From Escherichia coli (GTDB lineage: Bacteria > Pseudomonadota > Gammaproteobacteria > Enterobacterales > Enterobacteriaceae), in assembly GCF_013315695.1 (NCBI RefSeq), contig NZ_CP054353.1: a stretch of DNA of 64,000 nucleotides, one strand, 5' to 3'. The notes under the pieces are model-generated. The model was not told where the DNA came from. It ran no database searches and saw only the letters and a list, made by a program, of their open reading frames with translations. This document shows positions 42,692 through 43,433 of this stretch, piece by piece. Every line of letters starts with the position of its first letter. The stretch's first letter is position 1. Position numbers and translations under genes: made by a program.

Positions 42692-42767
42692 GGCCCTTTA
42701 GCTCAGTGGTGAGAGCGAGCGATTCATAATCGCCAGGTCGCTGGTTCAAATCCAGCAAGGGCCACCA
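42692..42767 (+). tRNA. ileZ: tRNA with CAT anticodon (Met or lysidine-modified Ile2; ileZ-like of Stx phages)
   Basis: Manual fold: acceptor GGCCCTT/AAGGGCC, D arm GCTC...GAGC, anticodon loop TTCATAA, T arm GCTGG-TTCAAAT-CCAGC, encoded CCA. Confidence 0.85.
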
Positions 42768-42774
42768 TCACATA

Positions 42775-42851
42775 CCGCCATTAGCTCATCAGGATAGAGC
42801 GCCAGCCTTCGAAGCTGGTTGCGCGGGGTTCGAGTCCTCGATGGCGGTCCA
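42775..42851 (+). tRNA. argN: tRNA-Arg (TCG)
   Basis: Acceptor CCGCCAT/ATGGCGG, anticodon stem CCAGC/GCTGG with loop CTTCGAA, T loop TTCGAGT, encoded CCA. Confidence 0.85.
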
Positions 42852-42864
42852 TTATCTGTACCCT

Positions 42865-42941
42865 GCGTTATTAGCTCAGCCGGACAGAGCAATTGCCTTC
42901 TAAGCAATCGGTCACTGGTTCGAATCCAGTACAACGCGCCA
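42865..42941 (+). tRNA. argO: tRNA-Arg (TCT), reads rare AGA
   Basis: Acceptor GCGTTAT/ACAACGC (one A-C mismatch), anticodon loop CTTCTAA, T arm ACTGG-TTCGAAT-CCAGT, encoded CCA. Confidence 0.8.
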
Positions 42942-42956
42942 GACTTATTTTTCCCG

Positions 42957-42980
42957 GCTCGCTTTTGCGGGCTTTTTTTT
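42957..42980 (+). terminator. intrinsic terminator after the tRNA cluster
   Basis: GCTCGC-TTTT-GCGGGC (one G-U) followed by eight T. Confidence 0.75.
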
Positions 42981-43433
42981 AAATGTCTCACAATTCAGAC
43001 GGTTGACAGTTGTCTGTTTTGCGGGGAGTTTGTTAAAAGAAACTGGCATGGTGAATCCCCCTGTGCGGAGGGGCAATCAGCAACTGGTGTTTTGTCACCG
43101 ACCCTTATCCTTTCTGTGCGGGTTCAGGTGCTGATACTGAACTCACCGGGAGGCACCCGGCATCATGTGCATGATGATACAGATACGCGGCTTTAGCCCC
43201 TCTCCGGAGGGGCTTTCTTGTGGGCAAAAAAAAGCCCGAGTGGGTTCGGGCAACAGCATGAGATATACATTTTTATAATCGAATGGATTTTAACCAGAAT
43301 TCATAAGGCTGCGCAACTGCGCGGTCTTTTTCGAATTGCGGGCTGTCGTCTCTCTTCTGCCATTGTCCTGTAACTTCCGGACTTCAGCCCGCTCCTTATT
43401 TTACTCACAATATTATCCCGGCCGGGAGGATTC

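Follow-up and report, generated by a model that had tools for sequence, protein, structure and literature searches.

Organization of the locus

The window, the whole 64-kb stretch of Escherichia coli DNA that was analyzed, contains a prophage that adjoins the chromosomal gene mlrA (yehV) and whose late region carries an antiterminator gene, three tRNA genes, an esterase gene, and lysis genes. The features on either side of the interval between the tRNA genes and the esterase gene are as follows.

24341-24988, minus strand: mlrA (yehV), adjoining the prophage attachment junction; annotated in the near-identical loci L001 and L011, ORF confirmed
25063-26349, minus strand: intact prophage tyrosine integrase, 428 aa; ORF, annotated in L001
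26383-26637, next after the integrase: excisionase; ORF
40260-40646, plus strand: antiterminator Q, 128 aa; Pfam PF06530 (Phage_antitermQ), E=1.5e-47
40695-41339, plus strand: cargo ORF, 214 aa
41618-41815, plus strand: cargo ORF, 65 aa
41950-42663, plus strand: AraC-type helix-turn-helix (HTH) regulator, 237 aa, the third cargo ORF between Q and the tRNA genes
42653-42681, plus strand: putative sigma-70-like promoter just 5' of the first tRNA gene; TTGATT-17-TATTAT, 9/12 matches
42692-42767, plus strand: tRNA CAT (ileZ type); ARAGORN, Rfam tRNA 72 bits; 75/76 bases as in 933W ileZ
42775-42851, plus strand: tRNA Arg TCG (argN type); ARAGORN, Rfam tRNA 56 bits; 74/77 bases as in 933W argN
42865-42941, plus strand: tRNA Arg TCT (argO type); ARAGORN, Rfam tRNA 64 bits; 75/77 bases as in 933W argO
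42956-42981, plus strand: intrinsic terminator of the tRNA operon (hairpin 1); 7-bp stem at 42956-42973 plus T8; dG -11.5, z -3.0
43434-45395, plus strand: nanS-p-type sialate O-acetylesterase, 653 aa; Pfam DUF1737, SASA, and DUF6645; SASA family carbohydrate esterase in L001 and L011
within 45547-47279, plus strand: DUF1378, DUF826, and YdfR-family ORFs; L001/L011 annotation and PHROGs
46112-46327, plus strand: class II holin; L001/L011 annotation and PHROGs
46746-47279, plus strand: lysozyme; L001/L011 annotation and PHROGs

An initial annotation, made from the sequence alone, had described the gene order of an Stx phage without stx: Q, three tRNA genes (CAT, Arg-TCG, and Arg-TCT), an esterase gene with a DUF1737 domain, and a holin gene. 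ARAGORN returned exactly these three tRNA genes, at 42692-42941, and the DUF1737 and SASA domains at 43434-45395 precede the holin gene at 46112-46327. The overall order is therefore present; however, Q is not adjacent to the tRNA genes, from which it is separated by 2 kb with three ORFs, and the esterase and holin genes have the DUF1378 and DUF826 ORFs between them. All of the elements of an Stx-phage-type late region were found, namely, Q upstream on the same strand (2 kb from the tRNA genes), the tRNA trio with its terminator, both stx flanks, and nanS-p followed by holin and endolysin genes.

The three cargo ORFs match PHROGs families without known function (phrog_8498, phrog_331, and phrog_1450). 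PADLOC gave only marginal matches (WYL, E=0.0012; SWIM, E=0.0034), and a reading of these ORFs as defense genes was rejected. The same AraC gene also precedes the tRNA genes and stx2k in phiSTEC1575. The site at 42653-42681 occupies the position of the element annotated as 'pT' directly upstream of ileZ in 933W, and we infer that it acts as a promoter. The 933W homologue of the tRNA-operon terminator carries the annotation 'terminator upstream of the stx genes'.

Attachment site and host

The yehW-mlrA-int-xis block (23945-27139) is 96% identical to its Sakai Sp15 counterpart, and the prophage, with its Sp15-type integrase, does sit at yehV. With Sp15/CP-933V, an Stx1 prophage at yehV, it shares the attachment site, the int-xis genes (96%), an mlrA gene left with a 648-bp reading frame, and an STnc100 gene 3' of the toxin slot. 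Sp15 has no annotated tRNA genes between Q and stx1A, whereas the window has three; its late region is only 73 to 77% identical to that of the window. Beyond the integrase module, the similarity to Sp15 is patchy (71 to 91%) or absent, with no match in the early and replication regions. There the prophage is mosaic, and it is not an Sp15 derivative; its morphogenesis genes are of the long-tailed, lambda-like type.

It had also been suggested that the locus fits the stx-negative phages that occupy yehV in some O157 lineages. Such Sp15-like prophages in O157 are indeed on record (PMC8046923), but the host chromosome is not that of an O157 strain. When the 22 kb of chromosomal sequence was compared with the 5,443 matching records, only 6 had at least 99% identity and all others fell below 99%; those six are human isolates, including MSB1_4I (NZ_LR898874.1) and MS 21-1. 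On the basis of its chromosomal sequence, the host is a member of a rare human-associated lineage.

The toxin site

42980-42983, no strand: toxin slot, 4 bases in place of the 1335-bp stx2 cassette of 933W

Comparison with 933W by blastn gave two blocks that meet at one point. The left block aligns window positions 42688-42979 with positions 3117-3409 of the 933W record (L004) at 93.5% identity, and the right block aligns 42984-43493 with positions 4745-5249 at 79.4% identity. Homology to the Stx2d phage Stx2d_112808 likewise ends at 42979 and restarts at 42984, with the toxin cassette in between, and the left junction is common to Stx2d and Stx2k phages. The stx-flanking homology postulated earlier is thus borne out on both sides, and the breakpoints flank the stx2 cassette at a clean junction, 4 bp against 1335 bp, with neither a remnant nor a scar.

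Searches of the whole 64 kb with Stx1A/B and Stx2A/B (tblastn) gave a best E value of 0.66, and blastn with the stx1 and stx2 cassettes gave no match, in agreement with the claim that the 492-bp gap between the tRNA genes and nanS-p contains no toxin-like ORF. The prophage therefore lacks the stxA and stxB genes that characterize an Stx-converting phage. In 933W, the stx2 cassette has a GC content of 44% and is flanked by a tRNA block at 54% and nanS-p at 55%, a contrast that suggests that the cassette is of foreign character. A short direct repeat borders it there, with ATCTGCG at the left edge and ATCTGTG at the right.

Small RNA genes in the gap

The gap had been described as containing only short hairpins. 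This description did not survive closer analysis: hairpins 2 to 4 belong to two Rfam small RNA (sRNA) genes, and a fifth strong hairpin at 43305-43328 had been overlooked.

43017-43225, plus strand: STnc100/EcOnc27/PasD-type sRNA gene; Rfam RF02076; contains hairpins 2 and 3; terminator at 43195-43214
43226-43281, minus strand: AsxR/AgvB-family anti-sRNA gene, about 56 nt; Rfam RF02703; hairpin 4 is its terminator, 43234-43251
43287-43316, minus strand: predicted anti-sRNA promoter; -35 TTGCGC at 43316-43311, -10 TAAAAT at 43292-43287, start at 43281
43305-43328, plus strand: fifth hairpin, 10-bp stem and U-rich tail; dG -15.7, z -3.4; 5' of nanS-p, overlapping the anti-sRNA -35 element

A scan located all four of the hairpins noted earlier, at 42956-42973 with its T-run, 43068-43083 (CCCCU/AGGGG), 43195-43214, and, on the minus strand, 43251-43234; the second and third had been placed one base off. 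Terminator-like sites number 12 in positions 40200-43600, compared with 2.8 ± 1.7 in shuffled sequences, and the core of the fifth hairpin, GTTGCGCAG, is invariant in six homologues. The blank-annotated gap is fully explained by two known sRNA genes and one terminator. Rfam matches that fell below their own cutoffs (Leu_leader, Plastid-ycf2 on the antisense strand of a tRNA, YrlA, STnc130, and snoZ30) were treated as chance.

The STnc100-type gene scores 131.7 bits against RF02076 (cutoff, 47) over model positions 1 to 206 of 206. The consensus fold of nine homologues contains 34 pairs; compensatory (double) changes support 6 of these, and the long-range stem and the terminator are retained. 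Compared with 933W STnc100 (207.7 bits), the window copy is divergent and differs in the central variable segment; with the STnc100/PasD family it shares the fold and the position directly 5' of the esterase, holin, and lysozyme genes. The location of STnc100/PasD upstream of a prophage sialic acid esterase gene is a common arrangement in E. coli genomes (bioRxiv 10.64898/2026.05.13.724894). EcOnc27 is expressed in O157 Sakai as an Hfq-bound, Hfq-dependent RNA of 235/247 nt (Tree et al. 2014, PMC4104026), and the EcOnc27 Northern probe of that study matches the 933W STnc100 sequence exactly. [quoted passage not shown] TTGACA at 43003-43008 was considered as a sigma-70 -35 element and rejected; it has no acceptable -10 element at 17 to 18 bp and lies about 10 nt before the start of the Rfam model. 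The candidate -10-like TTAAAT at 42979-42984 would suit the EcOnc27 RNA sizes better, but it lacks a good -35 element. With this hexamer, the STnc100-type gene would open immediately 3' of the tRNA terminator.

The minus-strand gene scores 63.0 bits against AsxR (RF02703; match at 43229-43281), exactly at the cutoff of 63, and 43.4 bits against AgvB (RF02702), below the cutoff of 56. It resembles AsxR, AgvB, and EcOnc03 in its length of about 56 nt, its promoter, and its convergence with an STnc100-type gene, and its 3' 40 nt or so, including the terminator, match the AsxR and EcOnc03 sequences in the supplement of Tree et al. The promoter sequence is conserved with the 933W AsxR and BP-4795 copies, and the start at 43281 is placed by analogy with the mapped 5' end of AsxR, which is an expressed, Hfq-bound RNA in O157 Sakai (Tree et al. 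2014, PMC4104026). The differences lie at the 5' end. The window RNA has the variable region CGAUUAUAAAAAUGUA, which departs from AsxR at 4 of its first 16 nt; it has neither the CA-rich GcvB mimic found in AgvB nor the ACAAUGCAAG found in EcOnc03. One of the 5' changes falls in the predicted FnrS-pairing stretch. With RNAduplex, the optimum for the first 24 nt against MG1655 FnrS lay off the FnrS terminator, at -6.8 kcal/mol, no better than for shuffled sequences, and the AsxR and BP-4795 RNAs were not separated from shuffles either. Because none of the three RNAs could be distinguished from shuffled controls, we do not claim a target for the anti-sRNA.

Comparison with known phages

In 933W and Sakai Sp5, the order is Q, ileZ-argN-argO, stx2AB, EcOnc27/STnc100, AsxR, L0105/nanS-p, S, and R. 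The window shares with them a tRNA trio that is 96 to 99% identical, the tRNA terminator, a convergent sRNA pair with equal spacing, and an esterase gene followed by holin and lysozyme genes. It differs from them in the absence of stx2AB and Pstx2 (1335 bp), in a Q protein of a different family (PF06530 type, 128 aa), in the 2-kb stretch of cargo ORFs that separates Q from the tRNA genes, in an sRNA/nanS-p side that is only 79% identical, and in being a long-tailed, lambda-like phage integrated at mlrA rather than at wrbA.

The same convergent sRNA pair lies 3' of stxB in 933W, Sp5, Sp15, and BP-4795. In 933W, STnc100 (4778-4983) and, on the minus strand, AsxR (4985-5037) begin 75 nt after stx2B; in the Stx1 phage BP-4795, STnc100 and an AgvB-like RNA follow stx1B. 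Such pairs have been reported at the moron site of Sp5 and also of Sp3, 4, 9, 10, 11, 15, and 17, and they have been described for both Stx and non-Stx prophages (Tree et al. 2014, PMC4104026).

Two stx-negative phages, Nil3, from O157:H7 in cattle, and the traversvirus vB_EcoP_phi296, also have the tRNA trio, the terminator, and the STnc100 module with no toxin between them. The Nil3 junction, TTTTTTTTAAATGTCTCACAATTCAG, is identical to that of the window; phi296 carries 33 additional bases there, and its anti-sRNA is of a different type. Over the region, both are 80 to 84% identical to the window, and in both, unlike in the window, Q lies directly upstream of the tRNA genes.

Discussion

We are confident that the late operon of a toxin-free lambdoid prophage begins in this region, that the prophage is integrated at mlrA (yehV) in a non-O157 E. 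coli strain, and that its stx slot is unoccupied, with a convergent sRNA pair beside it. The sRNA pair itself is already known (Rfam RF02076 and RF02703; Tree et al. 2014, PMC4104026). What is new is confined to the 5' region of the anti-sRNA, an uncharacterized variant; the remainder of the locus is known.

It is very unlikely that the gap is a noncoding spacer with only terminators and incidental hairpins. Three of its hairpins are terminator-like, as such a spacer would have it, but two Rfam sRNA families match the gap at full length, the STnc100 long-range stem and internal hairpins show covariation, a conserved promoter lies 5' of the anti-sRNA gene, and homologous RNAs have been detected experimentally in Sakai. 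Nor do we give any real credence to the idea that the gap encodes small proteins. ORFs of 37 to 51 aa are present, for example, at 43165-43278 or 43218-43373, and hypothetical proteins are annotated in the equivalent stretch of BP-4795 and phi296. However, relative to the Stx2d phage, these ORFs contain indels of 5, 1, 1, and 14 nt, which are not multiples of three, the pattern of conservation is that of RNA stems and not of codons, and PGAP annotates no gene there in either L001 or L011.

The history of the empty slot is a separate matter, and the initial annotation had left the choice between a precursor and a toxin-loss derivative. Most likely, this phage lineage normally has an empty slot and did not lose the toxin recently. 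The exact 36-mer of the empty junction occurs in 98 IMG/VR contigs, whereas the exact left junction of the stx2-filled state occurs in 57. Of 5426 complete E. coli genomes, 995 (~18%) contain at least 80% of 42600-43500 in one place and thus have at least one uninterrupted tRNA-gap-nanS-p stretch. That stx once lay at 42980-42983 and was then precisely deleted, or was lost when the prophage recombined with an stx-free lambdoid one, is improbable in our view. The flanks meet to within 4 bp, the direct repeat around the 933W cassette could mediate a deletion, the AraC-tRNA left flank adjoins stx2k in phiSTEC1575 at 92.9% identity to the window, and loss of stx or of the Stx phage is documented in O157 (PMC4609726). 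However, no remnant of a cassette was found in the 64-kb window, the identical junction occurs in divergent stx-free phages as well as in the IMG/VR contigs, and the host is not a known STEC lineage. Recent loss is unlikely because the right flank shows only 74 to 86% identity to that of any Stx phage found among 50,697 phage records and because empty junctions of identical sequence are widespread. The left flank reaches no more than about 93% identity, and therefore any ancestry shared with Stx phages would be old. If the toxin had been lost in the past through homologous exchange with an empty phage, the outcome would be precisely the sequence seen here, so the history cannot be read from one locus.

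The region 3' of Q is a series of accessory modules, each with its own signals: the cargo ORFs, the tRNA operon, the convergent sRNA pair, and nanS-p with the lysis cassette. The terminators of the two sRNAs (STnc100 type on the plus strand and anti-sRNA on the minus strand) stand almost back to back. In Stx phages, the toxin operon is a 'moron' located exactly between the tRNA module and the sRNA-pair module. In a lysogen, the tRNAs and both sRNAs would be expected to be expressed from their own predicted promoters, and the anti-sRNA would bind Hfq, its variable 5' end serving to titrate a host sRNA. Upon induction, Q-modified RNA polymerase would pass all of the terminators into nanS-p and the lysis genes. 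Of this picture, the sequence analysis shows the anatomy, the homologies, and the family matches; we infer the promoters, the expression in this strain, and the action of the anti-sRNA on a target.

We tentatively propose two further points, which we hold jointly and regard as possible rather than probable. The stx1 and stx2 cassettes may both have become joined at a single module boundary, with the terminator on one side and the sRNA promoter on the other, and the anti-sRNA may be a fourth seed variant of the AsxR/AgvB/EcOnc03 family, found in toxin-free prophages of commensal or extraintestinal E. coli and sponging a host sRNA that is neither FnrS nor GcvB.

The relevance of these results beyond annotation is small. 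Stx-phage architecture without stx is the common state of lambdoid prophages and is no sign of a former or future STEC strain. The base-precise description of the toxin slot is an aid to the scoring of stx gain and loss in assemblies, and the variant 5' end of the anti-sRNA offers a small lead for research on prophage-encoded sRNA sponges.

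Gene order around the tRNAs

The gap at 42942-43433, between a tRNA trio and a nanS-p-type esterase ORF, lies among the following features.

40260-40646, +, antiterminator Q (Pfam, E=1.5e-47)
40695-42663, +, cargo ORFs of 214 aa and 65 aa and a 237-aa AraC-type helix-turn-helix protein
42692-42767, +, tRNA, anticodon CAT (ARAGORN)
42775-42851, +, tRNA-Arg, TCG (ARAGORN)
42865-42941, +, tRNA-Arg, TCT (ARAGORN)
42956-42981, +, tRNA-operon terminator (42957-42980 in the initial annotation)
43017-43225, +, STnc100 (RF02076; Rfam full-length match, 131.7 bits, cut-off 47), with a CCCCU/AGGGG hairpin as internal stem
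43195-43214, +, STnc100 terminator
43229-43281, -, AsxR (RF02703; Rfam full-length match, 63.0 bits, cut-off 63)
43234-43251, -, terminator of the minus-strand RNA
43305-43328, +, fifth hairpin (10-bp stem, dG -15.7, z -3.4, U-rich tail)
43434-45395, +, 653-aa nanS-p-type ORF (DUF1737, SASA and DUF6645 domains), followed in order by a DUF1378 ORF, a DUF826 ORF, a class II holin, a YdfR-family ORF and lysozyme

The three tRNA genes, the only ones found by ARAGORN in the 64-kb window, share 75/76, 74/77 and 75/77 bases with 933W ileZ, argN and argO, respectively. The CAT tRNA and ileZ differ at one anticodon-loop base (T/C; window 42723, position 32), a difference that coincides with RefSeq naming: identical copies are called tRNA-Met and near-identical copies tRNA-Ile. 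Its acceptor stem (GGCCC...) resembles that of tRNA-Ile2, as in ileX.

The initial annotation was right that Q, tRNAs, gap, nanS-p and holin follow an Stx-phage architecture; however, Q is not adjacent to the tRNAs, the 2 kb between them being occupied by three ORFs. NanS-p is documented in non-Stx prophages as well. The 214-aa cargo ORF has a marginal WYL match, the same AraC gene lies upstream of stx2k in phiSTEC1575, and in related prophages (STEC2018-553 and O104:H4 strains) the Q-tRNA slot instead holds genes annotated as nucleoid-associated anti-phage proteins. Reports place the PasA/PasC sRNAs between prophage esterase and holin; here, that interval (45396-46111) gave no Rfam family match and is occupied by the DUF1378 and DUF826 ORFs.

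An empty toxin slot

The gap contains no toxin-like ORF, as initially annotated, and the searches bore this out: tblastn of Stx1A/B and Stx2A/B against the whole 64-kb window gave nothing below E=0.66, and stx1 and stx2 cassette DNA had no blastn match in the window. Two blocks align with the 933W locus, window 42688-42979 with 3117-3409 (93.5% identity) and window 42984-43493 with 4745-5249 (79.4% identity). The 1335 bp between them in 933W, comprising the stx2 promoter, stx2A, stx2B and 41 nt past the stop codon, are replaced in the window by four bases (42980-42983). An Stx2d phage has both of these junctions, and an Stx2k phage has the left one; therefore, the alignment with 933W proposed earlier places the breakpoints exactly on either side of stx, without a scar. 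The left block ends at the hairpin annotated in the 933W record as "terminator upstream of the stx genes". The 933W cassette looks foreign: its GC content is 44%, whereas the tRNA block has 54% and nanS-p has 55%. The direct repeat of 5-6 nt (ATCTG) that brackets it is too short to interpret. Unlike the window, the Stx1 phages Sp15 (at yehV in O157 Sakai) and BP-4795 lack the tRNAs; their right-hand joint is at the start of the same module (TTAAAT..C[A/T]CAATTCAG), 47 nt after stx1B.

The slot had been read as either a precursor or a toxin-loss derivative. The exact junction sequence occurs in Nil3, an stx-negative phage of bovine O157:H7, and in STEC2018-553 (copy 1 of its STnc100 module), and among IMG/VR contigs the exact empty junction was found 98 times and the exact stx2-filled left junction 57 times. 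At least 80% of 42600-43500 was matched in one place, a match that would be broken by an insertion the size of stx, in 995 of the 5426 complete E. coli genomes. On the right flank (the sRNA/nanS-p side from 42984), the 50,697 phage records searched include no Stx phage above about 86% identity, and the best left flank (the tRNA side up to 42979) beside a toxin, that of an Stx2k phage, reached 92.9%. Recent toxin loss is therefore unlikely; long ago, however, the locus may have recombined with a phage whose slot was empty.

A convergent sRNA pair

The earlier view that the gap holds only hairpins is wrong, since two full-length Rfam sRNA matches lie there and include three of the four listed hairpins, the first being the tRNA-operon terminator. 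All four exist; two were displaced by one base, and the fifth, a strong one, was overlooked. Terminator-like sites in 40200-43600 number 12, compared with 2.8 +/- 1.7 in shuffles. The fifth hairpin is kept in six homologues, overlaps the -35 of the promoter of the minus-strand RNA (the anti-sRNA, of the AsxR/AgvB family) and lies ~100 nt 5' of nanS-p.

A pair with this order and spacing also stands 75 nt after stx2B in 933W (STnc100, 207.7 bits; AsxR, 88.1 bits) and after stx1B in BP-4795 (STnc100, 190.7 bits; AgvB, 56.6 bits). Nine aligned STnc100 homologues fold into the Rfam structure, with compensatory double changes at six of 34 pairs. In the window, the sister family AgvB scored 43.4 bits at the minus-strand RNA, below its cut-off of 56. 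The anti-sRNA promoter (-35 TTGCGC, -10 TAAAAT), its CGAU start and its 3' 40 nt recur in AsxR and in the copy of BP-4795; the stem sequence at this site differs in a second lineage (Stx2d_112808, phi296). The anti-sRNA 5' end (CGAUUAUAAAAAUGUA) is unlike those of AsxR, AgvB and EcOnc03; in a duplex test against FnrS, neither it nor AsxR itself stood apart from shuffled sequences. Indels of 5, 1, 1 and 14 nt relative to an Stx2d phage argue against a coding function of the gap. In STEC2018-553 (locus positions 3343-4331), the STnc100 module occurs twice in tandem: the 5' half of copy 1 resembles the window, and copy 2, preceded by another terminator, begins at the same CACAATTCAG boundary, which is thus a recurrent recombination joint.

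Such loci are well described. According to Tree et al. 2014 (PMC4104026), morons are tolerated 3' of the Q-antiterminated PR', and convergent sRNA genes are located there, for example, EcOnc02 (AsxR) and EcOnc27 3' of stx2B in Sp5, with the same organisation in Sp3, 4, 9, 10, 11, 15 and 17. The reverse complement of the EcOnc27 Northern probe from that study exactly matches the 933W STnc100 sequence, so EcOnc27 is an STnc100 homologue. EcOnc27 is ~235/247 nt long and Hfq-dependent, AsxR destabilises FnrS and de-represses chuS, and AgvB mimics GcvB targets (Tree et al. 2014, PMC4104026); a 2025 paper places STnc100 75 nt downstream of stx2.

Host and prophage lineage

The prophage adjoins mlrA (yehV), which has the same 648-bp frame as with Sp15 in Sakai. 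Across window 23945-27139, identity to the yehW-mlrA-int-xis segment of Sp15 in Sakai is 96%; outside the int module, similarity is patchy (71-91% or none). The chromosomal 22 kb are 100% identical to those of MSB1_4I, an Australian rectal-swab isolate, and only six records reach 99% identity; therefore, the host is not O157:H7. Prophages of the Sp15 type that lack stx and occupy yehV in O157, as invoked initially, are in the literature (PMC8046923), but the present locus is not one of them.

The integrase (25063-26349, -, 428 aa) is intact; in MSB1_4I, 100% identical apart from this, ISKpn26 interrupts the gene, so the window stems from a close relative of that strain. The early region of the prophage has isrK and C4-antisense RNA modules twice in tandem (33724-33909 and 34587-34775, +; Rfam 62/75 and 62/81 bits). 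Both are situated 5' of a Rha-family regulatory gene, which suggests that an antirepressor immunity module of the P1/P7 type is duplicated here. In the chromosome, an IS110-family transposase (about 9313-10338; region about 8074-10923) separates lysO-hcp-hcr-poxB from yohP-mdtQ-dld-bglX, two regions that map well away from each other in K-12; collinearity with window 1-22000 was seen in only 85 of 5426 genomes. A Peptidase-S11 RNA motif (14941-15021, +, 72.8 bits) beside pbpG is an ordinary chromosomal feature.

Proposed working

The modules with their signals, the family membership of both sRNAs and the empty slot are observed; the working is proposed from homologues. During lysogeny, the tRNA operon would be transcribed from a promoter-like site at 42653-42681 and end at 42956-42981, and the two sRNAs would be made from their own promoters, ending at nearly back-to-back terminators, with the anti-sRNA 5' end titrating a host sRNA. 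After induction, Q-modified polymerase would run past each of the five hairpins and go on to transcribe nanS-p and the lysis genes. At a locus of this familiar kind, the only mildly new element, judged from sequence, would be a seed variant of a known anti-sRNA family.
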